64,000 bases of DNA from an uncultured Candidatus Saccharibacteria bacterium (GTDB lineage: Bacteria > Patescibacteriota > Minisyncoccia > Phycocordibacterales > UBA9973), in assembly GCA_964361705.1 (NCBI GenBank), contig CAYIBP010000002.1, positions 12,435 through 76,434 on the forward strand, written 5' to 3'. Shown here one piece after another: positions 1 to 57,598 of this stretch. The notes beneath the pieces were generated by a model. The model made no database searches. It saw only the letters and a program-made list of their open reading frames with translations, and was not told the origin of the DNA. Position numbers and translations under genes: made by a program. How positions within the stretch are numbered: the stretch's first letter is position 1; each line of letters opens with the position of its first letter.

Positions 1-2029
1 TTTTTTTCAAAATGTCGGTTGGGGTGGTAGTATTGTTCTTCCAGACTTTTGTGACTAGAGGATTCGCAGCCTGAGTAGTGAAAAAATCTAAAGAGCCGTC
101 ACCATTTATGTCAACTACGCTTGTATTGCCACTTTTTAAATATATTTCGCTAGAGGCAGAAAAATCCCAAGAAGAAGCAGACATCCATCCATTACCTGTA
201 TTGAGATGGACATGTCGCCCGATGGAGATTAAATTGTAATCTGGAACAAGGTCTGGCAAACCATCTCTGTTTATATCTAAAAACCTGACTCCCGAATCAA
301 TAATGTTGTCATTATTAACCAATTCCACAGGCGGATCCCAATTATTATCATCCACCCATGATCCATTGCCCTTGTTCATATATACCCACTTGTCATAATT
401 TTGGTTTGATTGATTCCATTCCATCCGTATAACATCTGGAAGATTGTCTCCATTGAGATCTATCATATACTGTTTGGGACCCAAAAGCTCAGGGGCTGGT
501 GAATCCCAACTAGAAGATTGTGAGGCGAATACTGATCCTGTATTCAATTGGGATCCGAAGTTCTGCCCTTGTTTTCTTATAATATCCATCAAACCATCCG
601 CATTCAGATCAATGAAATTCGCACCCCAATTATGGGTATTATCATCACTGCCGAAGGTAACAGTAGGTATCCAAGTACTGCTTTGCGACCAGGATGTCCG
701 GGTATTGAGATATGCATCATATCCCCCAGGATTTTGACTTAATGTCTCTTCCTCGCTCTTCAATATATCAGGTAGCAAATCGCCATTTATATCTCCCATT
801 CTCACCCCCTGATCCCACAGAAATCCGTAACTTCCACCCCTGATCTCATATTGCCGAAACAACATGGGCAGCTGAAAGCCGCTATTCTCGCTCCATGTAC
901 CATTGTTGTTGTTTATATATGTATGTTTTTGTTCAATCGGATCACCATTGTTTTTGTATGATTCTGCAATATCAGGCAGAGAATCTCCGTTGATATCAAT
1001 CATATTCTGTAAGCCCTCTTCAAAATGAGTTGGGGAAGCCCAGCTGGATGTATCAAGAGTCCATCCGGGAGTACTCGTATAATATGTAAAACTCGTCGCT
1101 AGCAGTGTCGTTACCACAGCGCTTTCATCTTGTCCAGATTCTGTAATACTGGAAAGCAGTGACCTTGATCCGTTGTCGCCATTAGTGTAAACAAGAGCAT
1201 ATTTTCTAACCCAAGAGCCATTTACTTTCACCTGAATCTCATTGATCCTGTAATTGTTTGTAATTAAAAAAGCTGTCGCATAAGATTTTGACACATCGCT
1301 TCTAGATTGTCTCAAAAATTCTATTTCAAATATTCCATCTGTTGTACCATTGCCGGTATATTTTATTTTATATGGATATATCTGTCCTGCGTCTTTATAA
1401 TATTCATATTTTATGTAATTATCATTTGTATCGCGCACCTCAGAAAGCATCCATTTGTAAACTTTAGAGTTGTCTGCGGAATCATCTTGTCTCTCGCTAG
1501 TGCTTGCGCCAAATTTATATACTGTGCCATTTTTAGCAGTAACGGTCCAAACATTTGAGGAAAGAGAGTATTTTAGAAAATCTCCGTTTTCTACTTTTGG
1601 TCCATAAGACGATCCTGAAATATTAACAAGTTCACCTGAAAGAGAAGAATTAAAATAATTGCTAGTATACAGTTTATCTGTGCCAGATTTGTTTAATCTA
1701 GTTATATACGGAATATCTGTACTCCAACCATAGCCGAAAATATTTGCTGTGTCACTGGTATTTTGATTGTTATAATTCAAATTCAGATTTGGTTCAACGC
1801 TATTCCTACCAAGAGGTGTCTTTATGTTGTAATTATATGTAAAAGCTCCTGAGTTTTCATCTACACTAAATATATTTTTGTTTGATTGAACCAATCCCGC
1901 AGTCAGATTCTCTGGAGTAAATATCGGTTCTTCCGCCCACACCGCATTCACCGGAGCGAGTAAAAAAGAAAGCGCCAGAAAAGCGCCGAGGGTTAGTTTA
2001 AAGAAACTATGTGTGGTGATGTTTTGCAT
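1..2029 (-). CDS. Secreted SpvB/TcB-N-terminal-like + FG-GAP (beta-propeller) repeat protein, toxin-like. Partial: start codon at 2029-2027, 3' end runs off the window start.
   Basis: Reverse-strand ORF with no stop down to position 1 (absent from the ORF track because it is open-ended). N-terminus MQNITTHSFFKLTLGAFLALSFLLAPVNAVWAEE looks like a signal peptide. It is followed by FGYGWSTDIPYITR and KVYKWMLSEVRDTNDNYIKYEYY, which resemble the SpvB/TcB N-terminal domain, then repeated DINGD(G/S)LPD FG-GAP-like motifs. Confidence 0.6.
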   Translation of the reverse strand, partial: MQNITTHSFFKLTLGAFLALSFLLAPVNAVWAEEPIFTPENLTAGLVQSNKNIFSVDENSGAFTYNYNIKTPLGRNSVEPNLNLNYNNQNTSDTANIFGYGWSTDIPYITRLNKSGTDKLYTSNYFNSSLSGELVNISGSSYGPKVENGDFLKYSLSSNVWTVTAKNGTVYKFGASTSERQDDSADNSKVYKWMLSEVRDTNDNYIKYEYYKDAGQIYPYKIKYTGNGTTDGIFEIEFLRQSRSDVSKSYATAFLITNNYRINEIQVKVNGSWVRKYALVYTNGDNGSRSLLSSITESGQDESAVVTTLLATSFTYYTSTPGWTLDTSSWASPTHFEEGLQNMIDINGDSLPDIAESYKNNGDPIEQKHTYINNNNGTWSENSGFQLPMLFRQYEIRGGSYGFLWDQGVRMGDINGDLLPDILKSEEETLSQNPGGYDAYLNTRTSWSQSSTWIPTVTFGSDDNTHNWGANFIDLNADGLMDIIRKQGQNFGSQLNTGSVFASQSSSWDSPAPELLGPKQYMIDLNGDNLPDVIRMEWNQSNQNYDKWVYMNKGNGSWVDDNNWDPPVELVNNDNIIDSGVRFLDINRDGLPDLVPDYNLISIGRHVHLNTGNGWMSASSWDFSASSEIYLKSGNTSVVDINGDGSLDFFTTQAANPLVTKVWKNNTTTPTDILKK

Positions 2030-2037
2030 TGAGATTG

Positions 2038-2307
2038 TTAAGAAAAAACTTTGTTTTCTAAAAGTTCAATTCTTTTATCGAAATTTGTATCATTGTCAAT
2101 AAGGTCGTCAACCTTTTCATTCAATTCGGCAAAATTATCCCGTGTCTCCATTTTAAAACTTTTTAAATCAACTCTAAGATCATTTATTTCTGATTTTACT
2201 TCGTATATATCCATTTTGGTTGCCATAACTTCAAGAATCCTTGCCGTGGTTTTGGCAATTACTTCGACAGACTTGGCTAGTTTTTTAAAATCAGCATCGT
2301 TTGACAT
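2038..2307 (-). CDS. Hypothetical small coiled-coil protein, immediately upstream of and co-oriented with the toxin-like gene.
   Basis: 89-aa ORF rich in K/E/D/L heptads. Its stop is 9 nt before the 2029 start codon. Confidence 0.4.
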   Translation of the reverse strand: MSNDADFKKLAKSVEVIAKTTARILEVMATKMDIYEVKSEINDLRVDLKSFKMETRDNFAELNEKVDDLIDNDTNFDKRIELLENKVFS

Positions 2308-2354
2308 AGTAGAAGTGTAGCAAATAATATTTTTTTGGCAATCACCAGTATTTT

Positions 2355-2377
2355 CCGTGAAGGACTGTCCTTCACGG
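2355..2377. other. Perfect 10-bp stem / 3-nt loop hairpin (ccgtgaagga-ctg-tccttcacgg) in the intergenic region. No clear U-tract.
   Basis: Palindrome read directly from the sequence. Confidence 0.35.
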
Positions 2378-2395
2378 AAATGGGAGAGGTGAGGT

Positions 2396-12876: not shown

Positions 12877-12951
12877 GGCCTTATCGTCTAATAGTTAGGA
12901 CGGAAGCTTCTCAAGCTTCAAATCTGGGTGCGATTCCCAGTAAGGTCACCA
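12877..12951 (+). tRNA. tRNA-Glu (anticodon CUC), CCA encoded
   Basis: Cloverleaf folded by hand: acceptor GGCCTTA/TAAGGTC, anticodon loop TTCTCAA, T-stem CTGGG/CCCAG, then ACCA. Confidence 0.8.
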
Positions 12952-14671
12952 ACTGGTTTTCATCAGGCGTAAATCCTGAAGAAAGCTTGAACACATAGGA
13001 CAATTTAGGTGTTCCATTAACTACTTCTTTATAAGTAGGCATTTTTTCGAATACAAGACCGAACAGATCTCTTTGTACTCTTGGATTGCTTGGGTTTAGT
13101 AGTATTTCTGCTGGGTGTTCCATTATTTTCTTCGCATCTCGCATAAATGCCTTGATATCATCTCGAGATATCTGTATTTTATGGCGCTGGTTGCCTGCAG
13201 CTTTAATCTTTACTTCTAAGTCTTCAATTTCTTTTTCAAGCTTTTCTCGTATAACCTGACTTTTTGTTACTTCAAATGCTTCAAGCTTTGATACTTGTTG
13301 TATCTCTAGGTCTGCGATATTTTGGTGAATGTCGCCAGATGCCCTAACAATTTCCTTTTCTCGTTTCCTATATTTGTTTAAGAATGTTGCTTCTAGCCCA
13401 TTAAGTACTTCAGGGACAAACTTCAAACTTTTGATGTATTTCTCTACGTTATGGTCAAAATCTTTCTTGTTTACAGCGAACCTCTCATGATTTCGAGCAC
13501 AATGATAAGATGGAAATCCTTCACCCGACTTGCCTTTAGATACACTTCCCAAAAATGGCTTAGGGCAAAGTGGGCATAATATAAATTTATATGGGAATAA
13601 CGGGTTGAATTTCATTCTTTCTTTACCTGATCTCCCAAAAGGATATCCTTGTACTAGTTCTAGACTACCGTCGACATTTTTCATTATAGCCAACTTACCC
13701 TTATTCGCTTGATTAAAGAGCTCTATTGAAACAAGACCATCATATTGGGCCTTCACGGGTTTGTAGAATGTCCATTTTTCACAAAGTACACCAGCATAGA
13801 TTGTATTTACAATAATACGTTGAAGTTGTTTGACGGTAAGAGGAATTCCTCCTGTTTGGCCAATTATTTTTTTATGGTCTTTGCTGTATCTATCTTGAAA
13901 TGGGGAGCGATAGCCCATAGCATTTACTCTGTCCACAATCTCAGGATCGCTTAACCCTTGAGCTCTTAGTGTAAACATTGCAATATAAAATTTTGCTCGC
14001 TCGGGGTGTGGCAATTGAATGGTTTTCTTTTTTCCATCAACGAATACTTTTTTATTGGTGAATCCATCTGCTGGCCGACGAGCACGATAACCTTGTTGTG
14101 TGAGTCGAATCTCTTGTCCAATCATACGAGTGAGGATGCTAGTGACTTCTTGATTCGCAACAGTTGCTAAAACATTCTCTGTAATTTCACTAGGATGATA
14201 CTTACTCCAATCATATTCCATTCCAAGATTTTCAAGTGTGTTTATAGAAGGTTGTATAACGCCGTTAGTATCTATCATCGCAACTCCATATTTAGCGAGT
14301 TCTCTTTTCATTCTAGAATATTCTTCGCTTCCTGCACGTGTCGCTCGATCAATAGATTTGAAAACGTAATAATCAACCAATCTAGGATGAGCTTTTATGT
14401 ATACAAGTATATCCTCAAAATCTTCTCTATCTGTTTTTCTACCTGAAATGGCCGTAGACCAAACTTTTCCATTGGGCACAATATGCCAATCTCTATCAGA
14501 TATAAATTTACGAATATCACTTTCTTGTCGTTCTAAACTTTCACCGTCCTGTTGTTTCAGAGAGCTTACTCTACACTGAACGACACAATTTTTCTCTTTT
14601 TTATCGTTGATTTTCATAATAATTACTACTATCACATTATGCGCTATTTTTTTCACGAAGCCAATTGTCAA
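12911..14671 (-). CDS. Large serine recombinase (integrase). Its 3' end runs 41 nt into the 3' half of tRNA-Glu.
   Basis: Resolvase catalytic domain VVQCRVSSLKQQDGESLERQ...YVFKSIDRATR, a zinc-ribbon CPLCPKP...HCARNH and a coiled-coil. 586 aa. Confidence 0.85.
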   Translation of the reverse strand: MTIGFVKKIAHNVIVVIIMKINDKKEKNCVVQCRVSSLKQQDGESLERQESDIRKFISDRDWHIVPNGKVWSTAISGRKTDREDFEDILVYIKAHPRLVDYYVFKSIDRATRAGSEEYSRMKRELAKYGVAMIDTNGVIQPSINTLENLGMEYDWSKYHPSEITENVLATVANQEVTSILTRMIGQEIRLTQQGYRARRPADGFTNKKVFVDGKKKTIQLPHPERAKFYIAMFTLRAQGLSDPEIVDRVNAMGYRSPFQDRYSKDHKKIIGQTGGIPLTVKQLQRIIVNTIYAGVLCEKWTFYKPVKAQYDGLVSIELFNQANKGKLAIMKNVDGSLELVQGYPFGRSGKERMKFNPLFPYKFILCPLCPKPFLGSVSKGKSGEGFPSYHCARNHERFAVNKKDFDHNVEKYIKSLKFVPEVLNGLEATFLNKYRKREKEIVRASGDIHQNIADLEIQQVSKLEAFEVTKSQVIREKLEKEIEDLEVKIKAAGNQRHKIQISRDDIKAFMRDAKKIMEHPAEILLNPSNPRVQRDLFGLVFEKMPTYKEVVNGTPKLSYVFKLSSGFTPDENQLVTLLGIAPRFEA

Positions 14672-14870
14672 AAAATAGGTCTGCTATTCTGTCGCAGGTA
14701 ATTCGCATTTGCTCAATTTGTTCATCAGTATATTTACTACTTTCAGGACCTAGTGATTTTTTGAATTCTTCAAAAGATAATTCTGTGGAATTTGAAAATT
14801 CACCCGATCCATTATTCTCAGGAGTTACCTTGTGTTCATTTTTGGTGAATTTTTTGGGTTCGTATTTCAC
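14637..14870 (-). CDS. Hypothetical small acidic protein
   Basis: 77-aa ORF directly upstream of the recombinase gene. Confidence 0.3.
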   Translation of the reverse strand: MKYEPKKFTKNEHKVTPENNGSGEFSNSTELSFEEFKKSLGPESSKYTDEQIEQMRITCDRIADLFFDNWLREKNSA

Positions 14871-14990
14871 CCTTTATTTATATAAAAAAGAGTGCTACGA
14901 AATACATACATCGTAGCTACGATTCGTCAAATATAAGGCGTTAAATTTAATGACTATTTAATTTGCTATCAACAGTGACTGTATCGCACT

Positions 14991-15677
14991 TCATTCTTTT
15001 TTGATTTTTATTTTTTTATTGAGTTTGTAACCTTCACCTTGATTACTTTCAATAAATTCTTGTTCATTTAATCCAAATTCCTTTTCAGCTTTAATTCTCA
15101 ATTTTGCAATTTCTGTGCCGAGTGTCCTTGTGGTTGTATTTATCTTCTTAGCAAGTATATCGCTTTTTGTAAATTCTTCATTTTCAGAAAACCACTCAAG
15201 TATACGATATCGCACACCGTTAGGTTTAAATTTTAATGAACGTTCTTTACCTGAAATATTAGAATGCAAATCACGAGGTGTTAACCAGAAAACCCTTGAA
15301 GCAATCCTTGCATCTTGACTAATTGTCTTTTCAGAATATTTAATTTCCCAATATAAATTTGTTACATCTAAAGGTCTACCATTTTCTCCCATTATACCAA
15401 CTCTTGCGCCAAGTACATTTTGATCAGTAACCGTGGATGGTTTTATGGCTCTAATTTTAAAGCGTCCCGATGATTCTTTCTCAACAACAGAAATCGCCAA
15501 CAGTACATCATTCAGTTTTGATGATCTGAAAATATCAGAGTAATTTTTCACCAAATCGTCCCAAAAGTATAGCTTTAGGGTAATACCATCTCTAAGCTCA
15601 CCGACTACACTCAAATCATCAATTTTGCGCTCTAGGACTTCTAAGATAGCTCTTTGCCTTAGTATTGGGTCAACCAT
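14991..15677 (-). CDS. DNA-binding protein with a C-terminal OmpR/PhoB-type winged helix (Trans_reg_C-like). N-terminal domain unknown.
   Basis: C-terminus YRILEWFSENEEFTKSDILAKKI...TLGTEIAKLRIK...GEGYKL. Confidence 0.45.
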   Translation of the reverse strand: MVDPILRQRAILEVLERKIDDLSVVGELRDGITLKLYFWDDLVKNYSDIFRSSKLNDVLLAISVVEKESSGRFKIRAIKPSTVTDQNVLGARVGIMGENGRPLDVTNLYWEIKYSEKTISQDARIASRVFWLTPRDLHSNISGKERSLKFKPNGVRYRILEWFSENEEFTKSDILAKKINTTTRTLGTEIAKLRIKAEKEFGLNEQEFIESNQGEGYKLNKKIKIKKE

Positions 15678-15920
15678 TTCATTATTATTACACAGTTTTG
15701 TGTCTTTATGCTATTATTAAGCTTACAAATAAATAAGCGACCTAACCCCTTAAGATTTCTTGAGGATATGGTCAAAAGACCCATAGAAGATACTGAACCC
15801 TACGTTCAGCAACTCTTCTATGGGCTATACAGGGAAACTTGTATAGGGTCGTAAGACCTAGCTGGCGTGGGGTTCTGTGCTTCTCACTGCTAGCCATTAT
15901 CAGCTAGCTTTTTATTTTCT

Positions 15921-16781
15921 ATGAAAAACAAATTGAACATAATTTTGAGTATTTTAGTCGCATTTATTTTAATACCTCAAATAGCTCTTGCTTCTTGGTG
16001 GAATCCATTCACTTGGTTTAATAAAAATACTAAACCTGCTGTAGAACAAACTGTTCAGGTACAGCAAAATAATGTTTTAGTTGAAGATAAAAAATTAACT
16101 GAGAAAAAAGTTTCAGAAAATAAAACTCTTACTAAAAAAGTAAACAATACTGACAAAAAATCTAAAAAAGAACCCAACACTCCTAACATACCACAAGTGG
16201 TAATCACTTCAACTCCAACAGTTATTGATGTGTGTAAAAACATCAATGGAATTCAAACAAATGTTTCTAGTGATGTGCGCATAATAGATGACAGCATTTG
16301 CTTACCTATCCCCGATTTATGTAAAAATGTTGAAGGAGCTCAATCATCTTATATTCCTAAAGGAATGTACCGCGAAAAAGATGGCAACTGTTATCCAAAA
16401 CCCATAGAAATTTACCTTCCCGAACCACAACAAACCACACAAAACACAAACCCAGTATCTACGCCAGTCGTTTCACCAGTTGATACAACACCGAAAGAAA
16501 TAACTCAGGAAGAAATGATGAGTGGTTTTATATATCAGTGGACAAATAATGATGTTCATACGTTGTGGATTGCAACAGACGGAGCACAGAAAGGTGACAT
16601 TGTAACTTTATCTTTTAATAATCTTACTGAAACTAAGACTGTGAAAGATGTCTCAAGCAAAAATTCGATTTGGTCGGGATGGACTTTTGATAACCTCGAT
16701 TTCAGTAAAGAATATCCAGTGTTCATAAAAATAGAACGTGGAAATAAATTTACAGTCTTTAATGGTATTGTTAAAAATTAA
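15921..16781 (+). CDS. Secreted hypothetical protein with repeated CKN(I/V)xG(I/A)Q Cys motifs
   Basis: Signal peptide MKNKLNIILSILVAFILIPQIALA, followed by an S/T/P/Q-rich linker. Confidence 0.45.
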   Translation: MKNKLNIILSILVAFILIPQIALASWWNPFTWFNKNTKPAVEQTVQVQQNNVLVEDKKLTEKKVSENKTLTKKVNNTDKKSKKEPNTPNIPQVVITSTPTVIDVCKNINGIQTNVSSDVRIIDDSICLPIPDLCKNVEGAQSSYIPKGMYREKDGNCYPKPIEIYLPEPQQTTQNTNPVSTPVVSPVDTTPKEITQEEMMSGFIYQWTNNDVHTLWIATDGAQKGDIVTLSFNNLTETKTVKDVSSKNSIWSGWTFDNLDFSKEYPVFIKIERGNKFTVFNGIVKN

Positions 16782-16853
16782 ATTTATACTAGGATTTCTA
16801 TATGCAATCAATAAAAATGATATTATTGATTTACCCACGACAACTTAAATATA

Positions 16854-17366
16854 ATGAAAAAATTCTTTAGCGATAAAAATAAAATAGTACTGTCTCTTAT
16901 TGTTGTTATAGCTTTCTTATCCCTTAATTTATCTTTAACAGCTATATTTATTTCTAATACATCTCATGAAATCGAGCAAGAAACCGAGATTGAATCTATT
17001 GCAATAAAAAATCCCTGCATGGCAGATGGTAAATCCAACCTTGAGTGGATCGCCTGCGAAAAAGATTTTTTAGTGATGATTAAGAAAGAAAAGGAAAGAT
17101 ACTTTGATAAGTTGATGAACTTGTTTACGAATAATTCAGAAAAGATGTTGGCCAACGATTCAGAACTGCTAAAAGAATTTACTGATTGGTATGAAAATTC
17201 CAATAACGCTAACCATACAAGGTGTCTGGCCGAAATGTATTACACTCGCGCCGGTTCTGCTTACGAAGGTAATATGACACGTTGCCAGTCTAGTGAAGCA
17301 CAACGAGACATTGAATTACTTAATAAAAATTTTGATTTTCTTTTCGATTCATACGATTATGAATAA
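16854..17366 (+). CDS. Secreted or membrane-anchored protein, possibly DUF1311/LprI-like
   Basis: N-terminal TM/signal sequence. Paired Cys with W/Y/R pattern (WIACEKD...DWYEN...TRC...EGNMTRC). Confidence 0.35.
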   Translation: MKKFFSDKNKIVLSLIVVIAFLSLNLSLTAIFISNTSHEIEQETEIESIAIKNPCMADGKSNLEWIACEKDFLVMIKKEKERYFDKLMNLFTNNSEKMLANDSELLKEFTDWYENSNNANHTRCLAEMYYTRAGSAYEGNMTRCQSSEAQRDIELLNKNFDFLFDSYDYE

Positions 17367-17598
17367 TAAATTAATCTAAAAACTAGACATGGGAATACTT
17401 AGCGTTTTATTGGTAATAGTTTGGATAGTTCTTCGCTCTATGGGGTTAATCCACATGCCTTGGGATAAATAAATTAGACAAAGTGTAATAATAATGGCAC
17501 CAAACTCGTGACCTTGTGTAACCTCGGGGATTACGGCTCATAAATGGGGTAAGGTGGCACTTGCTTACAAATCTCACCACCCCTCGGTAAATTGCCGT

Positions 17599-18201
17599 TT
17601 ATCGTTTGACGAGGATTCTTTTCTGCATATTTTTGTATATCTTATCTTCGTACTCATCAAGTAGGGCCTGATCTTCCTTGTCGATTTCCTCGTCTTGAAT
17701 ATTTTCAACAACAAGGCGAGTCTTATTCATTTCTTTTTCCATATGTTCAAGATATCGCCAAGAGTCGGGGATATTTTTATTATTTTGAATAGATTCTGCT
17801 ATATTTCGCCTAGCCCATAATTTTAAATTGCTTTCTCGGGTATTTTCTACTTCTTCAGCAAATTCAAGATCACTCTCCATGATATCGTCATACTCTTTTT
17901 CGGTCAGTTTATTGGCATGCAAGCGTTGCTCGTTAACGGGAGCTCCAATTAGTGCAGCTTCCTTAATTTTCGTTCTTCTAAAATCGGTCAATAATTGGGC
18001 TAATTCGTCCCGTAGTTCAGGAGTTTCTTGTAACCATCTGTAGTAGGTCGTGGCACCAATTCCTGCATATTCATATTGCTTTTTTGGTCTTTCGCCTCGG
18101 CCAGCCATGTCTTTCAACTTCGGAACACTCACGCAACGCTCTTCTCGCATGGATTCAGAGATTTTTTTGTTTATTTTTGATCGTTTTGTGGGCCTAGGCA
18201 T
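17599..18201 (-). CDS. HTH DNA-binding protein with a phage terminase small-subunit-like N-terminus
   Basis: MPRPTKRSKI...YAGIGATTYYRWLQETPELRDEL resembles small-terminase/HTH N-termini, followed by an acidic C-terminal half. It is the last gene of the methyltransferase-GHKL operon. Confidence 0.45.
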   Translation of the reverse strand: MPRPTKRSKINKKISESMREERCVSVPKLKDMAGRGERPKKQYEYAGIGATTYYRWLQETPELRDELAQLLTDFRRTKIKEAALIGAPVNEQRLHANKLTEKEYDDIMESDLEFAEEVENTRESNLKLWARRNIAESIQNNKNIPDSWRYLEHMEKEMNKTRLVVENIQDEEIDKEDQALLDEYEDKIYKNMQKRILVKR

Positions 18202-18222
18202 CTAAGTAAAATAAAAAACAGA

Positions 18223-20211
18223 TTAAATTTCCGAGTCGTCCTCAATATCTTTTACGAGTGTCATTAATTTACCAACCTCTCTATCTTGATCAAGAAAAGC
18301 AGAATATTGCTTATAGGCATTATTTATAAGTTCTTGATATAGAACAACTCGAATTTTTGCAGCCTTGAGTATCTCTATGGATTGGTTTGTGTCTTTTTCA
18401 TCATTCCATTCCTGAAGCTTTTCTCCAACAATACAAATACATTCAATTGGCTCATTTCCACTTCCAATTTTATCCAGTAACTTCTGTAGAGCGGACTGGT
18501 ATTTTTGTAGTTGATCCACTATTTCAGTAGTTCGAAGGATTCGATTTGATCTCTTGAGCTCAATAATGATATGTTTGCCTGCAGAATTTTTATATTTAAT
18601 ATCAATTCGTCCCTTCTTTTCCTCATCTGTTAATTTTGCATCGATTTTACCAAATGCACTTTTGACTGTTTTCTCCATTACAGGTGTCTCGGTTGCTCTG
18701 TCCCACGCAGAATCAAGAAGCCATAAATTTTCGTATAAATGTTTTTGAACCAATTTCTCCAGAGCATTTGAAGTTACTTTATCTTCAAGCTTCTTTATAA
18801 TTTCAATTCGAGCCCTAACGATTTGGTGATACAAAGTAGCCTCAATATCATTATGTTCAGCAAAGAGTTCACTAAATAAGGCTATGTTTTCGGGAGTGAT
18901 ACGATCAAGTGCTTCAAGATTTTCCTTATATCTAAGGCTTTCAAAGGCCAGTACAGCATGTTTAAATAATGTCTTTTTTTCACTTTCTTCAATAGTAAAC
19001 TGATTGATTTTCCCAAACAAATCTTCGGCGCGCTTTTTAGTTGGTTTCTTCAACGTATCAAACCAACTCTTAATAGCTTTATTTTTAAGAGCTTCTTTGA
19101 CCCCAATTTCTTTTCTATTTTCAGTCCATTGTTTTTGGATATGTTTTAACTCTTTTTGTACAAAAACTTGAAGTGCTTTATAACGGTCAGCATCTTTATT
19201 TATTTCTTGTCTATTTGTTGTTGCAATATCTTCCTCATTATCAAGGTCAAGAAAATCAGCATGAATTTCTCCTATTAAATATTTAGTATATACGCCACCT
19301 TCTGAAAAATCTTCAATAATATCTTCTTGTGCAAGTTTGCCGCGAACCATAACTACAATTTTATTTATATTTTCATCTTCATCCTTTAAATCACCTGAAC
19401 CAGTTACTGTACCTATCCAACCACTAACTTTGTATTTTTTACCAGAAACAATGATTTCATTTGACCGTTTTTCTTTCTTAAGTAGTTTTGTTTTGTCGCA
19501 AAGATCTGAATATTTTTTACTATCGTCACCGAAATACCAAATGTACTGAATTTTATGAAAATAATCACGATCAGTAACCTTCACTTCTCCGCCATCAATT
19601 TTTACAGAAAAATTATACTCCTTACCTAATACACTGAACCTTCTTGCAATTCTTTTCTTTAGAGCTGGTACAGTTGCTTTTGTAATGCTTTTTTTTAGTT
19701 GAACTAGGGTAATTTTTGTTCCACTGCTTGTTAATGTAATTTTATTATCTTCCACAGGGTCAGGATTGTATTCCTTTTCAGCAGTTTTACCGTCAAGAAG
19801 TTCCATGATTTTTTCATGAGATAGGATCAAGCCGTTTTTTTCTTTACCATTGTTAGTTTCAATAGTTGCCTTATTTGCAATTGAAAATAGAGATAATTTC
19901 CCGATACCTTTTCTACCCATAACACTTCTTTTGTATCTTGGAGTTTTACTAACTTCTTTCCTTTTTTCGTAACCAACAAAAAGATATCTCTTATTAATAT
20001 CTGCCAAAGACATCCCTTGTCCATTATCTTCAAGAACAATTGAATCCTTCTCAATATTTATGCTTACTTCACTCGCATCGGCATCCCATGAATTTGCGAT
20101 TATCTCTGATAAAACCGAAGGGATGTTGCTGTAAAGCTTGATACCGAGTTGGTTCAAGACGTTCAATCCGATGGTCATTTTATATTTTGGATCAATGGGT
20201 ATTTTAGTCAT
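18223..20211 (-). CDS. GHKL (HATPase_c, MORC/MutL-like) ATPase with a C-terminal PD-(D/E)xK-like nuclease domain. Putative restriction component.
   Basis: Bergerat-fold motifs EIIANSWDA (N-box), DNGQGM (G1) and GRKGIGKLSLF (G2). C-terminus DIKYKNSAGKHIIIELKRS. Confidence 0.7.
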   Translation of the reverse strand: MTKIPIDPKYKMTIGLNVLNQLGIKLYSNIPSVLSEIIANSWDADASEVSINIEKDSIVLEDNGQGMSLADINKRYLFVGYEKRKEVSKTPRYKRSVMGRKGIGKLSLFSIANKATIETNNGKEKNGLILSHEKIMELLDGKTAEKEYNPDPVEDNKITLTSSGTKITLVQLKKSITKATVPALKKRIARRFSVLGKEYNFSVKIDGGEVKVTDRDYFHKIQYIWYFGDDSKKYSDLCDKTKLLKKEKRSNEIIVSGKKYKVSGWIGTVTGSGDLKDEDENINKIVVMVRGKLAQEDIIEDFSEGGVYTKYLIGEIHADFLDLDNEEDIATTNRQEINKDADRYKALQVFVQKELKHIQKQWTENRKEIGVKEALKNKAIKSWFDTLKKPTKKRAEDLFGKINQFTIEESEKKTLFKHAVLAFESLRYKENLEALDRITPENIALFSELFAEHNDIEATLYHQIVRARIEIIKKLEDKVTSNALEKLVQKHLYENLWLLDSAWDRATETPVMEKTVKSAFGKIDAKLTDEEKKGRIDIKYKNSAGKHIIIELKRSNRILRTTEIVDQLQKYQSALQKLLDKIGSGNEPIECICIVGEKLQEWNDEKDTNQSIEILKAAKIRVVLYQELINNAYKQYSAFLDQDREVGKLMTLVKDIEDDSEI

Positions 20212-21277
20212 AGATGTTTACGTGCTCCTTTATACTTCTTCCAATAATAGACCCGAGTCTTACTGGCACAGCATTGCCGATAAATTTAGCAACCTTGCCT
20301 ATTTGAATTGGTTTTGTTGGATCTGAAAATTGATATTTTTGAGGAAATGTTTGAAATATAGCTGCTTCTCTCAAGCTTATTGCTCTATCTTGTGTTGGAT
20401 GCCCATATCTGCCATTTCCAAGACCCACACATTGTGTTGTCATGGTTGGCGAAGGTTCGTCCCAGCGCATACGACCGTAAACAGAACCGCGATAAGTTTT
20501 TCCTGATTTTTTTTTATGACATTCTAGTATTAATTCTTCGCTCCAGCTTTCTGAATTACCTCCATCGTGAGGAGTAGCTTTTATTCTTTTTAGATTAATA
20601 GGAGCAAGTTTTCTTGATCGATGCAATGGGTCTCTTTTACTAATTTCTCCATTTTTAATAGGCTCTAAGTGTGTAATGACATCACGAACAGTTACCCGCT
20701 TGTTTTTATGTGTTCTTTTAATTAATTGAATTTCACCAAATTTAGAAGCAAGTAATACAAGTCTTCTCCTTTTTTGTGGTACTCCAAATTCAGACACATC
20801 AACAATTTCGTATTTGTAATTATAATTGTTCTTATCAAGAACTCTCAAAAAGTTTGCAAACGCGGGGTATTTATTCTTAACAGCGAGATCACTGACATTT
20901 TCCATTGAAACAATATCTGGTTGGGTTTCAGAGATTAGCTGTGCAAATTTTCCTAATGGTTCAAGCTGTTTTTTTGTAATAGAATTAAGATTTAGTCTTG
21001 AGAATGGTTGACAAGGTGCACATCCTGCGAGCACTCGTATTGTTTCTTTTTTATCTCCAAATAACCTATCTATTTTTTCTGCTGTAACATTTAGAATATC
21101 TTCATCAATAAATTGTGTTTTATTATTGTATTCATACCCGAATTTACAGCTCGAATCATTATCAATTCCAGCCACTACATCAAGACCTTCTTTTATGAGT
21201 CCATGAGTTAGTCCTCCTATTCCACAAAATAAATCAATAACCTTTATTTTTGAAGATTGTAATTTCATTTGCATCAT
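20204..21277 (-). CDS. dcm: DNA (cytosine-5)-methyltransferase
   Basis: Motif I DLFCGIGG, motif IV PCQPFS and ENV. Overlaps the GHKL gene by 8 nt. Confidence 0.85.
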   Translation of the reverse strand: MMQMKLQSSKIKVIDLFCGIGGLTHGLIKEGLDVVAGIDNDSSCKFGYEYNNKTQFIDEDILNVTAEKIDRLFGDKKETIRVLAGCAPCQPFSRLNLNSITKKQLEPLGKFAQLISETQPDIVSMENVSDLAVKNKYPAFANFLRVLDKNNYNYKYEIVDVSEFGVPQKRRRLVLLASKFGEIQLIKRTHKNKRVTVRDVITHLEPIKNGEISKRDPLHRSRKLAPINLKRIKATPHDGGNSESWSEELILECHKKKSGKTYRGSVYGRMRWDEPSPTMTTQCVGLGNGRYGHPTQDRAISLREAAIFQTFPQKYQFSDPTKPIQIGKVAKFIGNAVPVRLGSIIGRSIKEHVNIYD

Positions 21278-54724: not shown

Positions 54725-57598
54725 TTAATACAAAATGTTGATAACTCTATTCTTTACATAAATTATCTTTTTCGGATTCGAACCTCCTAAATACTTTAAG
54801 ACAGCAGCATTCATCAAAGCTTTCTTTTTTACATCATCTTCACTATCATCAGCAGAAATAACCAACTCACCGCGAGCTTTGCCATTCATTTGTATTGCAA
54901 TCTTAATTTCATCGTCTTTTATTAAACTCTCTTCCCATTTTGGCCAACCGGAAAGATGAATACTTTTCTTTTCACCAAGATTAAGCCATACATACTCTGC
55001 GATATGCGGAGCAAATGGCGCAAGTATCTGCATGAATTTTTTCAAATCTTCTCTATTCACGCTGTGGCCTTTGATAAAAGAAGACTCCATCTCTGTCGCC
55101 AGAATCATCATCGCGGAAATAGCCGTATTAAAACGCATATTTTCGATATCTTCTGAAACTTTTTTTATAGTTTTATGCAGAATTTTTGTAAGAGTACTTG
55201 GCGAAGGATTTTTATCTTCATTACCCTTTTGGCTGATTCTCCAAACCTTTTCTATAAACCTCCTTGATCCGATGATACTATCCATACTCCAAGCCACTGC
55301 ATCTTCGAACGGACCCATAAACATCTCGTATACGCGCAAAGTATCTGCACCGTAAGTTTTTACAATACTGTCAGGATTCACCACATTGCCTATGGATTTA
55401 GACATCTTTATTCCGCCTTCGCCCAATATCATACCGTGCGAAGTACGCTTTGCATAAGGTTCGGCTTGTGGTACGAGTTTTAAATCATATAAAAATTTAT
55501 GCCAAAAACGAGAATACAAAAGGTGTAAAGTCGTGTGTTCCATACCGCCGTTGTACCAATTTACCCCGCCGTGGCGTGGGTCGCTTCCAAGCCAGTATTT
55601 TAGATTTTTCTTGCTTGCAAATTCTTTACTATTTTTTGGATCAGTGTAACGCAAATAGTACCAAGAACTTCCCGCCCAGTTTGGCATAGTGTCTGTTTCC
55701 CTTTTGGCCTTGCCTTTGCATTTTGGACATTTTACATTTACCCACTTTGCAATACTTGCCAATGGCGACTCCCCTGTGTCTGTAGGTTTGTAACTTTTCA
55801 CATCTGGCAACTTTACCGGTAGATCTTTTTCTGGCACTGGCACGAGCCCGCATTTTTCACAATTCACGAGCGGTATCGGCTCACCCCAGTATCTCTGTCT
55901 GGAAAATATCCAGTCACGAAGTTTGAATTTTGTAACAATCTTGCCGCCCACAAATTTTGTGATTTCCTTTTTGGCTTGCTCACTAGTTAATCCATCAAAC
56001 TTTCCGGAATTTATTAATACACCTTCTTGAGTGATGCAGTGTGTTTTATTTTTAAACAACTTCCACAACTCTTGACCTTCACCATGATCTAAAAAACTAT
56101 CCAGCTCACTTTCTGTAAGCCACACCACCTCGTGTTTCATTTTTTCTTCGTTAGATACGCCAACATTTTCATTGTTTTCTAATTTGAAATGCAAACCTTG
56201 AAAATGAGCAAATCTGTTTTCATTTTTATGGGGTGCCCAAAATTTAGCATGCATTTTACCACCTATATATTTTATAAATTTAACATTCTTAAAACCAGTC
56301 TCTTCGAGAATTTCTCGCATTCCTGCGGTGACATAATCTTGCCCATCTGTGCCACCAACAACAAAACTACGCCAACTCTGTTTTTTCCATTTTAAACCAA
56401 TATATTTTTTTTCTTTCCAATGTTCCACGATACACATAGAAACATCTCTTTCTATAAATGGCTCATCTTCGTGTATCTTGTCCGGACCACTTGTATCTAC
56501 CCATACAGGTTCTATGACATCCCTTATTTCAATATTATATTTTTTTGCAAATGCACCATCTCGATCATCATGCGCGGGCACGGCCATTATCGCGCCGGTG
56601 CCGTATTCTGCCAATACATAGTCGGCTATGAACACAGGTATCTCTTCCTGACTTGCAGGATTTATGGCTTTGATACCTTTCAATTCCACACCCGTTTTTT
56701 CTTTTTCATCTGAAGTACGTTCGACTTCTGATTTCTTTTTTGTTTTTACTATATATTCATCTACCTCTTTTTTATTTTTTATTTTATCTCCAAGAGTTTC
56801 AACCAAGGGATGCTCTGGTGCCAAAACCATATATGTCGAACCAAAAATAGTATCAGCACGGGTAGTAAAAACTCTTATTTTCTTGTCTGAGTTTTTTAAA
56901 GAAAATTCAATTTCTGAACCTTCGGACCTCCCTATCCAATTCCTCTGCTGTATTTTTACCCGTTCTGGATAATCCACTGTGTCCAGATCTTTATCTAGTC
57001 TATCTGCGTATTTTGTGATGGCTAGTATCCATTGTTCTTTTTCTCTTTTTTCTGTCTGCCCGCCACAACGCTCGCACACTCCACCTATGGCTTCTTCATT
57101 TGCCAAACCAATCTTGCAAGAAGGACACCAATTAATAAAAGATTTTGCTTTGTACGCCAAACCCTTTTTGAAAAATTGTAAGAATATCCACTGTGTCCAT
57201 TTGTAATATTTTGGATCGGTAGTATTTATCTCGCGAGACCAGTCAAAAGAAAAACCCACAGACTTCAACTGTCTTCTAAAAGTATCTGTATTTTGTTTCG
57301 TCACCAAAGCTGGCTTTTTGCCTGTCTTTATAGCATAGTTTTCTGTCGGCAATCCGAAAGCGTCCCAACCTATAGGATACAAGACATTGCATCCTTCCAT
57401 GCGACGCTTTCTGGATATAATATCCATCGCTGCATAACTGCGAATATGTCCAGTATGTAGCCCTGCACCTGAAGGATAAGGAAACTCTACCAAAGGAAAG
57501 AATTTCTTACCCTTGCCATCAAGAGCTTTGTATAAATTTTTCTTCTCCCAATCTTTCTGCAATTTGCCTTCTATTTTCTTGTGATCGTAGTTTTTCAT
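54725..57598 (-). CDS. leuS: Leucine--tRNA ligase
   Basis: HIGH region HTGHIRSY, KMSKS and the CP1 editing domain. 957 aa. Confidence 0.95.
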   Translation of the reverse strand: MKNYDHKKIEGKLQKDWEKKNLYKALDGKGKKFFPLVEFPYPSGAGLHTGHIRSYAAMDIISRKRRMEGCNVLYPIGWDAFGLPTENYAIKTGKKPALVTKQNTDTFRRQLKSVGFSFDWSREINTTDPKYYKWTQWIFLQFFKKGLAYKAKSFINWCPSCKIGLANEEAIGGVCERCGGQTEKREKEQWILAITKYADRLDKDLDTVDYPERVKIQQRNWIGRSEGSEIEFSLKNSDKKIRVFTTRADTIFGSTYMVLAPEHPLVETLGDKIKNKKEVDEYIVKTKKKSEVERTSDEKEKTGVELKGIKAINPASQEEIPVFIADYVLAEYGTGAIMAVPAHDDRDGAFAKKYNIEIRDVIEPVWVDTSGPDKIHEDEPFIERDVSMCIVEHWKEKKYIGLKWKKQSWRSFVVGGTDGQDYVTAGMREILEETGFKNVKFIKYIGGKMHAKFWAPHKNENRFAHFQGLHFKLENNENVGVSNEEKMKHEVVWLTESELDSFLDHGEGQELWKLFKNKTHCITQEGVLINSGKFDGLTSEQAKKEITKFVGGKIVTKFKLRDWIFSRQRYWGEPIPLVNCEKCGLVPVPEKDLPVKLPDVKSYKPTDTGESPLASIAKWVNVKCPKCKGKAKRETDTMPNWAGSSWYYLRYTDPKNSKEFASKKNLKYWLGSDPRHGGVNWYNGGMEHTTLHLLYSRFWHKFLYDLKLVPQAEPYAKRTSHGMILGEGGIKMSKSIGNVVNPDSIVKTYGADTLRVYEMFMGPFEDAVAWSMDSIIGSRRFIEKVWRISQKGNEDKNPSPSTLTKILHKTIKKVSEDIENMRFNTAISAMMILATEMESSFIKGHSVNREDLKKFMQILAPFAPHIAEYVWLNLGEKKSIHLSGWPKWEESLIKDDEIKIAIQMNGKARGELVISADDSEDDVKKKALMNAAVLKYLGGSNPKKIIYVKNRVINILY

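Follow-up and report, generated by a model that had tools for sequence, protein, structure and literature searches.

A probable Rhs/YD-repeat polymorphic toxin locus with a single-chain TcB-TcC-like main gene in a Patescibacteria (CPR) MAG

The locus described here is very probably an Rhs/YD-repeat polymorphic toxin locus, harboured by a Patescibacteria (CPR) MAG and headed by a single-chain, TcB-TcC-like main gene. Within the window, by which we mean the whole stretch of 64,000 nucleotides analysed, only a truncated frame of this gene is present. This frame is part of a complete, intact-looking antagonism locus that comprises the toxin, three candidate immunity genes and spare tips, and the host of the locus is an ultra-small groundwater bacterium. 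Extreme tip diversity, cognate-looking immunity genes and orphan cassettes, as seen here, typify polymorphic toxins that serve antagonism.

The frame at the window edge and its upstream neighbour

The toxin frame lies on the minus strand, opens with an ATG at 2029 and continues, in translation, for 676 codons with no stop up to the window edge (Table 1). The first-pass annotation had noticed this uninterrupted reverse-strand frame and had attributed its absence from the ORF list to the lack of a stop inside the window. Both points proved right, as the list leaves out ORFs running off the sequence. Hence, some caution is advisable with ORF tracks, which lose genes cut by window ends.

Table 1. 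Features at the beginning of the window, in window coordinates.
Feature	Coordinates	Strand	Basis or remark
Toxin gene, 5' third (codons 1-676 of 2133)	1..2029	-	Open frame; rest beyond window position 1
FG-GAP-type beta-propeller, ~aa 335-676, six loops, cut by window edge	1..1027	-	FG-GAP_3; AF2
SpvB/TcB-N-type beta-rich domain, ~aa 55-320	1070..1867	-	Pfam SpvB; Foldseek
Predicted Sec-type signal peptide, aa 1-29, ...APVNA/VW	1943..2029	-	Hydrophobicity; AF2 helix
89-aa coiled-coil-type small protein gene	2038..2307	-	ORF
Sigma-70-like promoter match, TTGCCA-16-TACACT, TG before -10	2314..2341	-	Consensus scan, pattern match only

The motifs that had been quoted for a SpvB/TcB-N block, FGYGWSTDIPYITR and KWMLSEVRDTNDNYIKYEY, are present in the translation. 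Similarly, the estimate of at least five FG-GAP repeats was borne out by a count of six DxNxDxxxD loops of FG-GAP type, at aa 345, 413, 474, 524, 585 and 640; the Asp and Asn residues of these loops vary hardly or not at all in an alignment of 44 family sequences. The profile search that had been proposed placed both domains of the window fragment above the curated Pfam cut-offs (SpvB, 52.9 bits, cut-off 22; FG-GAP_3, 71.1 bits, cut-off 26.9). A weak TcdB_toxin_midN match was also detected at the truncated end of the fragment (15.7 bits, cut-off 24.8). In TcB, a domain of this SpvB/TcB-N type is where the shell begins.

The AF2 model of the N-terminal fragment (pLDDT 87.7) shows a helix at aa 10-23 followed by a low-confidence linker at aa 24-51, and is confident in the propeller region, which superposes on the TcB propeller. 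When this model was compared with the PDB by Foldseek, the top 13 matches were TcB chains (E 1e-26 to 1e-20, TMq 0.57-0.68), and the SpvB N-domain 6p0x was matched at E 1.8e-10. When the first 800 residues were compared with PDB sequences, no match emerged even at E<=10; the kinship of the N-terminus to TcB is visible only in fold comparison.

A signal peptide had also been claimed, and a signal-peptide-like N-terminus was indeed found. It reads MQNITTHSFFKLTLGAFLALSFLLAPVNA followed by VW, with hydrophobic 19-mers at aa 8-32 and small residues in positions -3 and -1; the predicted cleavage site was read from the sequence instead of being called by a predictor. A hydrophobic N-terminus recurs in most homologues (108/120). 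From these features we infer that the toxin is Sec-exported. A terminator-like match at 1987..1971, inside the signal-peptide coding region, was treated as a chance occurrence. The GC content of the toxin gene (40.0%, vs 37.1% for the window) is unremarkable as a signal of horizontal transfer.

Upstream of the toxin, the stop codon of an 89-aa ORF sits 8 nt ahead of the toxin ATG. The idea that this small gene encodes a chaperone or partner, which we examined from the side of the toxin loci, is not supported. Pfam matches of the 89-aa protein were generic coiled-coil only, a word-indexed homologue search with it returned nothing, and a single-protein search of species genomes found no relative. 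Exhaustive phmmer retrieved a family of 61 representatives at E<=1e-3, all of them short proteins, and the HMM of this family had 0 matches within ~6-10 kb of 86 homologous toxin genes. Since the family is absent from all 86 homologous toxin loci, the 89-aa gene is not a conserved partner. It is a lineage-specific neighbour, possibly or even probably co-transcribed with the toxin, and the sigma-70-like match upstream of it is a candidate promoter for both genes.

Shell, core and the question of a Tc complex

A public contig (L001/L092) is identical to the window, with 0 mismatches over 12,307 bp, and extension through L001 (10279..16680) yielded a complete toxin of 2133 aa. The RHS shell predicted to lie beyond position 1 was found there, as RHS_repeat (60.5 bits, cut-off 22, 6 stretches), YD_repeat_2x (TIGR01643, 72.6 bits) and the Rhs-associated core TIGR03696 (50.4 bits, cut-off 32.5, aa 1857-1912). 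This core also occurs in the first of the two orphan cassettes described below, where it scores 54.1 bits. The RHS/YD repeats span ~1,000 residues and a DNRLRE domain is inserted among them (39 bits, cut-off 34); a TEN_YD-shell Pfam match is on record for the repeat region only. PDB sequence matches are to Rhs shells (E 1e-23 to 1e-13). The core aligns to Rhs, TcC (YenC2, TccC3) and SGS1 cores, SGS1 being its second-best PDB sequence match (E 4e-6).

The consensus of the aspartyl protease is DPXG-X18-19-DPXG, with two catalytic Asp (PMC10684867). A DPxG motif had been sought beyond the window, and this expectation was realised in part. DPTG is present and so are both core aspartates, D1908 and D1963, which are nearly invariant in the family, and the second half of the motif aligns with NNPLRLTDPDG of YenC2. 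However, the first half reads DPIY and the spacer has 51 residues (DPIY-X51-DPTGE); across the family, spacers range from 27 to 79 with a median of 33.

Altogether, because an SpvB domain, a six-bladed propeller, RHS/YD repeats and an Rhs-associated core are joined in one protein, the toxin is a single-chain equivalent of a TcB-TcC cocoon. The window fragment alone shows SpvB and FG-GAP domains only, and some relatives go under no more than the NCBI name 'FG-GAP-like repeat-containing protein', which would suit an adhesin of the generic FG-GAP/RHS surface type that is not a toxin at all. We regard this alternative as extremely improbable: over its full length the protein includes an Rhs-associated core, in which both aspartates are present, and ends in a hypervariable tip, genes are tightly linked downstream, and relatives end in recognised toxin domains. 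No PAAR family is among the Pfam matches on the full protein, and in place of a T6SS-type PAAR/VgrG-binding or prePAAR module the N-terminus consists of the signal peptide and SpvB. Teneurin-type YD shells are preceded by an FN-plug and an NHL propeller, and in the Foldseek comparison the N-terminal model matched teneurin structures only marginally (E 2e-3, probability 0.14-0.18, TMq 0.10).

The first-pass annotation had called the protein Tc-toxin-like. This is right for the TcB-like N-terminus, in which SpvB and the FG-GAP propeller are recognised by both Pfam and Foldseek, and for the RHS core, but a Tc complex in the strict sense is contradicted by the single polypeptide, the signal peptide and the lack of a TcA-like gene. 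TcdB_toxin_midN is absent from the full-protein matches and midC was not found; among the homologues, some have PF12256 in their precomputed Pfam columns and in the locus tables. A published Tc census uses the TcdB_toxin_midN/midC domains as markers and demands that tcA or tcB lie less than 10 kb away (PMC7861908). We found no TcA-like gene in the 64-kb window, in the ~6 kb downstream to the contig end or at 86 homologous loci, and therefore we do not consider the locus a strict Tc complex. The window holds no ORF >957 aa and none of its large ORFs is TcA-like, and at 80 further loci the extra ORFs of >=1200 aa encode RpoC, a LamG protein and a CBM protein only.

It could still be argued that the toxin serves as a fused BC subunit within a true Tc (ABC) complex. 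A TcA pentamer, encoded elsewhere in the genome, would then dock on the propeller and inject the tip into its target cell, eukaryotic or other. The best structural matches of the N-terminal fragment are TcB chains, TcA-binding propeller included, and the weak TcdB_toxin_midN match, in a family for which this domain is listed in some homologues, points the same way. In addition, orphan TcC genes distant from tcA are known (PMC7861908), and the MAG is incomplete, the TcA search having covered the window, the contig end and the homologous loci. Nevertheless, such a complex is very unlikely given the ORF content of the window and of the further loci, the neighbour rule of the census, the predicted signal peptide, and the immunity-like genes and orphan cassettes, which antibacterial Rhs systems also have and which point to bacterial targets. 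Tc subunits are not known to carry a signal peptide, and the title of PMC10847048 has them freed by lysis.

Tip, downstream genes and family

Family similarity collapses straight past DPTG. Among 86 relatives, whose tails measure 126-236 aa, all pairs are similar ahead of the motif (3655/3655) and only 164/3655 in the tail, and so the variable C-terminal toxin region that had been predicted takes the form of a hypervariable tip. In the present toxin, the tip has 166 aa after DPTG and is basic and Gly-rich (17.3 kDa, pI 9.6, GRAVY +0.15 vs -0.64 for the whole protein). The Tse5, RhsA and Rhs1 cargos belong to the same size class (PMC10684867). Local BLAST and HMM searches among family members showed that the main tip type recurs as the C-terminal tip of 6-7 homologues, and the tip of the first orphan cassette is 63% identical to that of a full-length relative (P0112). 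A word-indexed homologue search with the main tip returned nothing, and it has no match in Pfam, NCBIfam or the PDB. The tip-family profile gave only noise against the PDB and Pfam, with no sequence similarity to solved structures, Tse5 chains among them. The model of the closest homologous tip has a pLDDT of 47.8 and is unreliable.

The tip would most likely act in or at the membrane, as a depolarising or pore-forming moiety, because it is Gly/Ala/Ser-rich, predicted helical and paired with membrane-embedded candidate immunity proteins. It contains no strongly hydrophobic 19-mer, and its invariant polar residues (Q, D, Y, R and H) would also suit an enzyme.

The main gene is followed, 2 nt downstream, by a gene for a 154-aa membrane protein. 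Next come two orphan cassettes of core plus tip, and lastly a longer, truncated copy, the fourth, which is 66% identical to aa 1475-2047. Main and orphan sequences share 78-83% nucleotide identity up to DPTGE/K and are unrelated past it. Each orphan cassette is trailed by a small membrane-protein gene, and the resulting 154-, 82- and 115-aa ORFs, all hydrophobic, begin 2, 3 and 11 nt past the preceding stop. The predicted downstream immunity gene has its counterpart in the immunity-like 154-aa gene. At a related locus (L079), 13 nt separate a tip of the same class (33 bits) from a downstream gene for a homologue of the 154-aa protein (E 2e-8), and in the homologue P0006 a barnase is followed by Barstar. 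Position and co-occurrence make the downstream membrane proteins candidate cognate immunity proteins. At four other loci with the same tip class, the 144-153-aa downstream proteins were also compared with the 154-aa protein; the hhalign probability was 4.9%, which does not support homology, and only size and layout are shared. At least two core-bearing ORFs are present in 28/65 related loci. Orphan cassettes are typical of Rhs loci generally.

Relatives of the toxin, with the same SpvB-propeller-RHS architecture, are encoded by at least 341 loci in species-representative genomes, and the best 80 come mostly from CPR lineages. This overturns the premise that a toxin of such kind is unusual in a CPR genome; the locus is ordinary, one of many in a large family that databases already contain. 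The tips of relatives include barnase with Barstar, HNH, Tox-GHH and M15/CHAP domains, and their shell inserts vary as well (LamG, Ig-like and others). Some relatives carry nucleases, which must reach a cytoplasm; this counts against the favoured reading, in which a Sec-exported cocoon would have to deliver its cargo without TcA, T6SS or T7SS.

CPR bacteria depend on hosts, and the toxin might instead serve to interact with a host without lethal effect, as in mosquito SGS1 or the teneurins. The shell would then shield helices that insert into a host membrane for attachment or nutrient leakage, and not for the killing of competitors. SGS1 offers a precedent, as a single-chain Tc-like shell with inserted receptor domains and a cleaved helical moiety inside (PMC9935623). 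Its core match to our protein, the inserted DNRLRE domain and the helical, Gly-rich tip agree with this proposal. However, cognate-looking immunity genes, orphan cassettes and an extreme tip diversity that extends to nuclease and M15/CHAP domains speak against it, and we judge it unlikely.

Under the antagonistic reading, the toxin would be exported by Sec and the core aspartyl protease would cut past DPTG(E), so that the basic tip of 17 kDa stays enclosed in the shell. Binding to the surface of the target cell would fall to the propeller together with the DNRLRE insert, and the tip would be released at the target membrane. The 154-, 82- and 115-aa membrane proteins would shield the producer and its kin, and recombination across the 78-83% identical core repeats might swap tips. 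More tentatively, and with considerable doubt, we suggest that CPR bacteria, taken to lack both T6SS and TcA, may use members of this family as BC-type cocoons that are exported by Sec and work on their own. Variable surface inserts would replace TcA for targeting, and the cargo would be delivered directly at the membrane of the host or competitor. If this is true, Rhs cocoons would have a mode of delivery that depends on neither TcA nor T6SS, and membrane-active tips might permeabilise host cells for the episymbiont.

The value of this single locus is modest and lies in a corrected annotation and a candidate new tip/immunity family. A systematic description of the family, taking in the TcA-less architecture, the long-spacer protease motif, the variable shell inserts and the unclassified tips, would add to knowledge of CPR competition and dealings with hosts, because the searchable literature offers no more than one line, in PMC6031116, on a Saccharibacteria genome with an RHS toxin.

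Comparison with known systems

Several known systems resemble the present locus in part. CPR bacteria are not known to have a T6SS. WapA of Bacillus subtilis is a Sec-dependent Gram-positive Rhs toxin with a signal peptide, RHS repeats, a C-terminal toxin and an adjacent immunity gene, and mediates contact-dependent inhibition without a T6SS. It has cell-wall-binding repeats, not an SpvB domain with a propeller.

Tse5 of P. aeruginosa (8cp6) shares with our toxin the RHS shell, a core of the aspartyl-protease type, a cargo of ~16-17 kDa, whose encapsulation is predicted in our case, and a linked immunity gene, which is tsi5 for Tse5 and a candidate here (PMC10684867, PMC9637101). In Tse5, the cargo is a fragment that forms pores and causes depolarisation (PMC10684867, PMC9637101). 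Unlike our toxin, Tse5 is delivered by a T6SS and undergoes cleavage of an N-terminal plug. CDI ionophore toxins resemble the present locus in their helical tips with Gly-zipper-like motifs, the helices being a prediction in our case, and in their close-set, often unannotated small hydrophobic immunity ORFs (CdiI) (PMC11630599). Their delivery scaffold is a CdiA filament, unlike the Rhs cocoon found here.

Mosquito SGS1 (8fjp) is a single-chain Tc-like Rhs/YD shell as well, in which a propeller lengthens the chamber and beta-sandwich receptor-type domains interrupt the repeats; behind the aspartyl-protease site lies a C-terminal moiety that is helical and hydrophobic (PMC9935623). Unlike our toxin, SGS1 is eukaryotic, has 3364 aa with two propellers and extra domains, is accompanied by no immunity genes or cassettes and is not known as a toxin.

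Finally, unlike the TcB-TcC cocoons (TcdB2-TccC3: 4o9x, 6h6e, 6suf; YenB-YenC2: 4igl), the toxin described here forms a single chain that starts with a signal peptide and has no TcA gene nearby, and domain arithmetic gives it a shorter shell of ~1,325 aa plus propeller. It also differs from them in its DNRLRE insert, immunity genes and orphan cassettes, in a TcdB_toxin_midN match below the cut-off and in a protease spacer of 51 residues vs ~18. With these cocoons it shares the SpvB-type domain, the FG-GAP propeller, the RHS shell, the Rhs core with two aspartates and the hypervariable C-terminal cargo.

The complete toxin and its TcB-like front end

On the reverse strand, the window begins with a frame of 676 codons without a stop (1..2029, ATG at 2029), which continues past the window edge. 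The first-pass annotation had spotted this gene and interpreted it correctly as a partial toxin. The frame is absent from the ORF list because, as then proposed, it is truncated at the edge and the ORF tool omits ORFs running off the source; the motifs quoted at that time are present in its translation. Exact look-up of the neighbouring 89-aa protein led us to the ENA groundwater contig Hain_H52_01um_R3_721 (32,135 bp), which shows 0 mismatches to the window over 12,307 shared bases. The complete gene has 2133 codons (public contig L001, 10279..16680) and encodes a full protein with RHS/YD repeats, a core and a variable tip. An identical protein is recorded on an 84.8-kb contig. Its cluster mates are labelled "[Patescibacteria group bacterium]", fragments are annotated as "hypothetical protein, partial", and the closest species-level relative among the matches listed comes from a Candidatus Nomurabacteria MAG (59% identity).

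The N-terminus has a hydrophobic core (aa 8-32) followed by VNAVW, and signal-peptide cleavage would fall between VNA and VW; this end is hydrophobic in 108 of 120 homologues. Profile searches of the window fragment supported both the SpvB-like block (Pfam SpvB, 52.9 bits, cut-off 22) and the FG-GAP repeats (FG-GAP_3, 71.1 bits, cut-off 26.9). At least five such repeats had been announced, and we found six DxNxDxxxD loops (aa 345, 413, 474, 524, 585 and 640), whose acidic positions show little or no variation across a family alignment of 44 sequences. A PDB sequence search with the first 800 residues gave no match. AlphaFold2, supplied with 43 homologues, modelled the 676-aa fragment confidently (pLDDT 87.7, pTM 0.83). 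The top 13 Foldseek matches in the PDB were all TcB subunits (TcdB2-TccC3, TcdB1, YenB; E 1e-26 to 1e-20, TMq 0.57-0.68, about 740 columns). The SpvB N-domain came next (E 2e-10), and T6SS Rhs proteins and teneurins were only marginal matches. Together, the model and this ranking support a predicted TcB-like front end.

RHS shell, protease motif and downstream cassettes

The RHS/YD repeats expected beyond window position 1 follow the SpvB domain and propeller (RHS_repeat, 60.5 bits; YD_repeat_2x, 72.6 bits). A DNRLRE domain of about 165 aa is inserted in them (NF033679, 39 bits, cut-off 34; approximately aa 1462-1626), which Pfam sees only as a weak TGF-beta-propeptide match. The Rhs-associated core (TIGR03696, 50.4 bits, cut-off 32.5) reads RYYDANTGRFTSQ-DPIY-X51-DPTGE and aligns with its counterparts in T6SS Rhs proteins, SGS1, YenC2 and TccC3, including NNPLRLTDPDG of YenC2 (residues 669-689 of the 690-residue solved chain). 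The canonical Rhs aspartyl-protease motif is DPXG-X18-19-DPXG (PMC10684867). Of the predicted protease motif, both aspartates (D1908, D1963) and the second half, DPTGE, were found, whereas the first half is DPIY and the spacer measures 51 residues. Across the family, the first half is DPx[F/Y] instead of DPXG, and the spacer is long (27-79 residues, median 33). Tse5 is cleaved four residues after the second Asp (PMC10684867); with the cut placed likewise, the predicted cargo would be aa 1968-2133 (166 aa, 17.3 kDa, pI 9.6). The GRAVY value of this tip is +0.15, against -0.64 for the whole toxin.

Features of the toxin locus (public contig L092) and of the window
Feature	Sequence	Position	Strand	Size	Remarks
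Main toxin gene	L092	3597-9998		2133 aa	
imm154, first small membrane protein	L092	10001-10465		154 aa	
Orphan 1	L092	10564-11916		450 aa	
Second small membrane protein	L092	11920-12168		82 aa	
Orphan 2	L092	12373-13638		421 aa	
Third small membrane protein	L092	13650-13997		115 aa	
NYN-domain gene	L092	14036-14569		177 aa	
Fourth toxin copy	L092	14574 to contig end		612+ aa	5'-truncated
tRNA-Glu(CTC)	window	12877..12951	+		
Large serine recombinase	window	12911..14671	-	586 aa	3' end overlaps tRNA-Glu(CTC)
LOOT RNA (RF03000, Rfam)	window	15739..15859	+		full-length match, 82.4 bits, gathering score 46.4
Type II restriction enzyme	window	18223..20211			PADLOC 327 bits
C5-cytosine methylase	window	20204..21277			Pfam 188 bits
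Leucyl-tRNA synthetase	window	54725..57598	-	957 aa	NUDIX match aa 407-501, 24.3 bits, cut-off 21.1

Downstream of the toxin lie two core-plus-tip cassettes (orphans 1 and 2), which share 78-83% nucleotide identity with the main-gene core and with each other; all three diverge completely immediately after DPTGE/K. Each is followed by a small ORF, at 2, 3 and 11 nt from the respective stop, and the three encoded proteins are all hydrophobic with TM-like segments. The first-pass annotation had called for a search for a downstream immunity gene, and imm154, 2 nt after the toxin stop, is a candidate. The fourth copy matches residues 1475-2047 of the main protein over its own residues 34-589, at 66% identity; this copy starts inside the DNRLRE insert, extends to a related tip and runs off the contig at 16409. 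Repeats probably explain several assembly breaks in this region. Such arrays are common in the family, with at least two core-bearing ORFs in 28 of 65 related loci.

Variable tips and candidate immunity genes

We compared the 86 members (query plus 85 homologues) whose second motif is located by a regular expression. Over the 250 residues that precede this motif, 3655/3655 pairs show significant similarity, whereas over the tails after it (126-236 aa) just 164 pairs do, in line with the variable C-terminal tip that had been predicted. Precomputed Pfam lists of relatives include barnase, HNH, Tox-GHH and restriction-endonuclease-like toxins, M15/VanY peptidases and CHAP. P0006, a 51% identical homologue, ends in a barnase-type ribonuclease, and a Barstar gene follows after 4 nt. 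In its locus (L006, 1..13898), the P0006 gene lies directly after a phage-integrase gene, with a second integrase and unannotated ORFs further upstream; these integrase neighbours suggest that the toxin rides a mobile element in that genome.

The tips of the main gene and of both orphans have no match in Pfam or NCBIfam, and a profile of the main tip family found no match in PDB or Pfam. Six or seven family members end in a tip of the main type, P0001 being the best match (38% identity), and the orphan-1 tip is 63% identical to that of the full-length homologue P0112. A tip HMM placed the class C-terminally in toxins of five additional genomes, including a Terriglobia MAG, and in the Ryanbacteria locus L079 (33 bits). 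In L079, the next ORF, 13 nt after the toxin, encodes a homologue of the 154-aa protein (E 2e-8), by sequence an independent co-occurrence of tip and candidate immunity gene. At four other loci of this class the next ORF encodes a protein of 144-153 aa that contains TM segments and ends in a conserved domain; homology of these proteins to the 154-aa protein is unsupported (hhalign probability 4.9%). In the P0001 locus, whose tip class is the query's, an uncalled hydrophobic ORF of 65 aa follows the toxin stop after 65 nt (L007, 8805..9002, +) and is possibly an unannotated immunity gene.

The tip family has invariant glycines within hydrophobic stretches (GxxGG) and invariant polar residues Q, D, Y, R and H (VPGRLP, GxHTQ); the P0001 tip model is all-helical and unreliable (pLDDT 47.8). 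By analogy with Tse5 (PMC10684867, PMC9637101) and with CDI ionophores and their small hydrophobic immunity proteins (PMC11630599), we lean slightly towards a main tip that would act in or at the membrane. The main alternative is an enzyme active at the membrane face.

Genomic context, distribution and comparison with Tc toxins

The 89-aa coiled-coil gene ends 8 nt ahead of the toxin ATG and is preceded by a promoter-like site (TTGCCA-16-TACACT, 2341..2314), so that co-transcription of the two genes is plausible from the sequence. Between the L25 stop and this site lies a perfect 13-bp inverted repeat (2353..2379, -; TTCCGTGAAGGAC a GTCCTTCACGGAA), with no T-run and no terminator call. The family of the 89-aa protein has 61 representatives at E<=1e-3 and 17 at E<=1e-10, with lengths of 51-219 aa except for one marginal 2491-aa match. 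Its members share a C-terminal block, DLKSFKxET...DKRIExLExKVF, and match only generic coiled-coil Pfam families, with no curated family of their own. Several carry a variable number of tandem ATKEDLKxF-type repeats before this block (alignment A3). The family HMM detects the query locus (113 bits) and nothing in six close homologous loci or 80 genome loci, and the upstream neighbours of homologous toxins are mutually unrelated (integrase, L21, BacA, DivIC and others). Across these loci, the gene is therefore not the conserved partner or chaperone that had been suggested as a possibility.

Elsewhere in the window, 12877..21277 is a probable integrated island, in which the recombinase is followed by four ORFs without family match and the LOOT RNA, and then by the restriction enzyme and the C5-cytosine methylase. 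The NUDIX match in leucyl-tRNA synthetase lies directly past the editing domain and may be an unusual insertion.

Of 8000 candidates scored in a word-indexed search, 470 were relatives at E<=1e-10, and a species-genome scan confirmed at least 341 loci. The best 80 of these belong mostly to CPR lineages (Nomura-, Saccharibacteria-labelled, Paceibacterota, Falkow-, Doudna-, Uhr-, Kaiser-, Wolfe-, Ryan-, Gracilibacteria and others). Scattered relatives among the matches listed come from Bacteroidota, Acidobacteriota, Planctomycetota, proteobacterial bins and Candidatus Methanoperedens. Close relatives of the N-terminal module, at 38-40% identity, are also present outside CPR, in the archaeon Candidatus Methanoperedens (L038), Terriglobia (L033), Niastella (L026) and Bacteroidales (L053); the Terriglobia protein carries the query's tip class. 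These relatives and the shared tip class imply that whole toxins or tips have moved horizontally between phyla and between domains. For a Saccharibacteria genome, an earlier report notes in one sentence an RHS polymorphic toxin accompanied by an immunity gene (PMC6031116); we found nothing in the searchable literature linking SpvB or RHS repeats to CPR lineages.

A census of Tc toxins defines TcC by the presence of tcA or tcB less than 10 kb away and uses TcdB_toxin_midN/midC as TcB markers (PMC7861908). Here, TcdB_toxin_midN is weak (15.7 bits, cut-off 24.8), at the truncated end of the window fragment. We found no TcA-like gene in the window, where the largest ORF is leucyl-tRNA synthetase and the other large genes are housekeeping, nor in the remaining downstream sequence of the contig (about 6 kb), which holds just cassettes, small ORFs and the NYN gene. 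TcA was likewise absent near the toxin gene in 6/6 close homologues and in 80 further loci, whose additional ORFs of at least 1200 aa encode only RpoC, a LamG protein and a CBM protein. Judged over these regions and loci, the protein is not a Tc toxin in the strict sense. The TcB/TcC-type reading of the first-pass annotation holds for the TcB-like fold, RHS shell and core. The gene encodes a predicted Sec-type Rhs polymorphic toxin, a single chain resembling TcB-TcC, and is accompanied by candidate immunity genes and spare tips in a Patescibacteria genome. The family to which the toxin belongs is large and already annotated in databases, and within it this member is ordinary. Four minor features set it apart: no TcA nearby, a protease motif with a long spacer, the DNRLRE domain inserted in the shell, and an unclassified pair of tip and candidate immunity protein. 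Unlike Tc toxins, it is a single chain with a predicted signal peptide and no TcA nearby.
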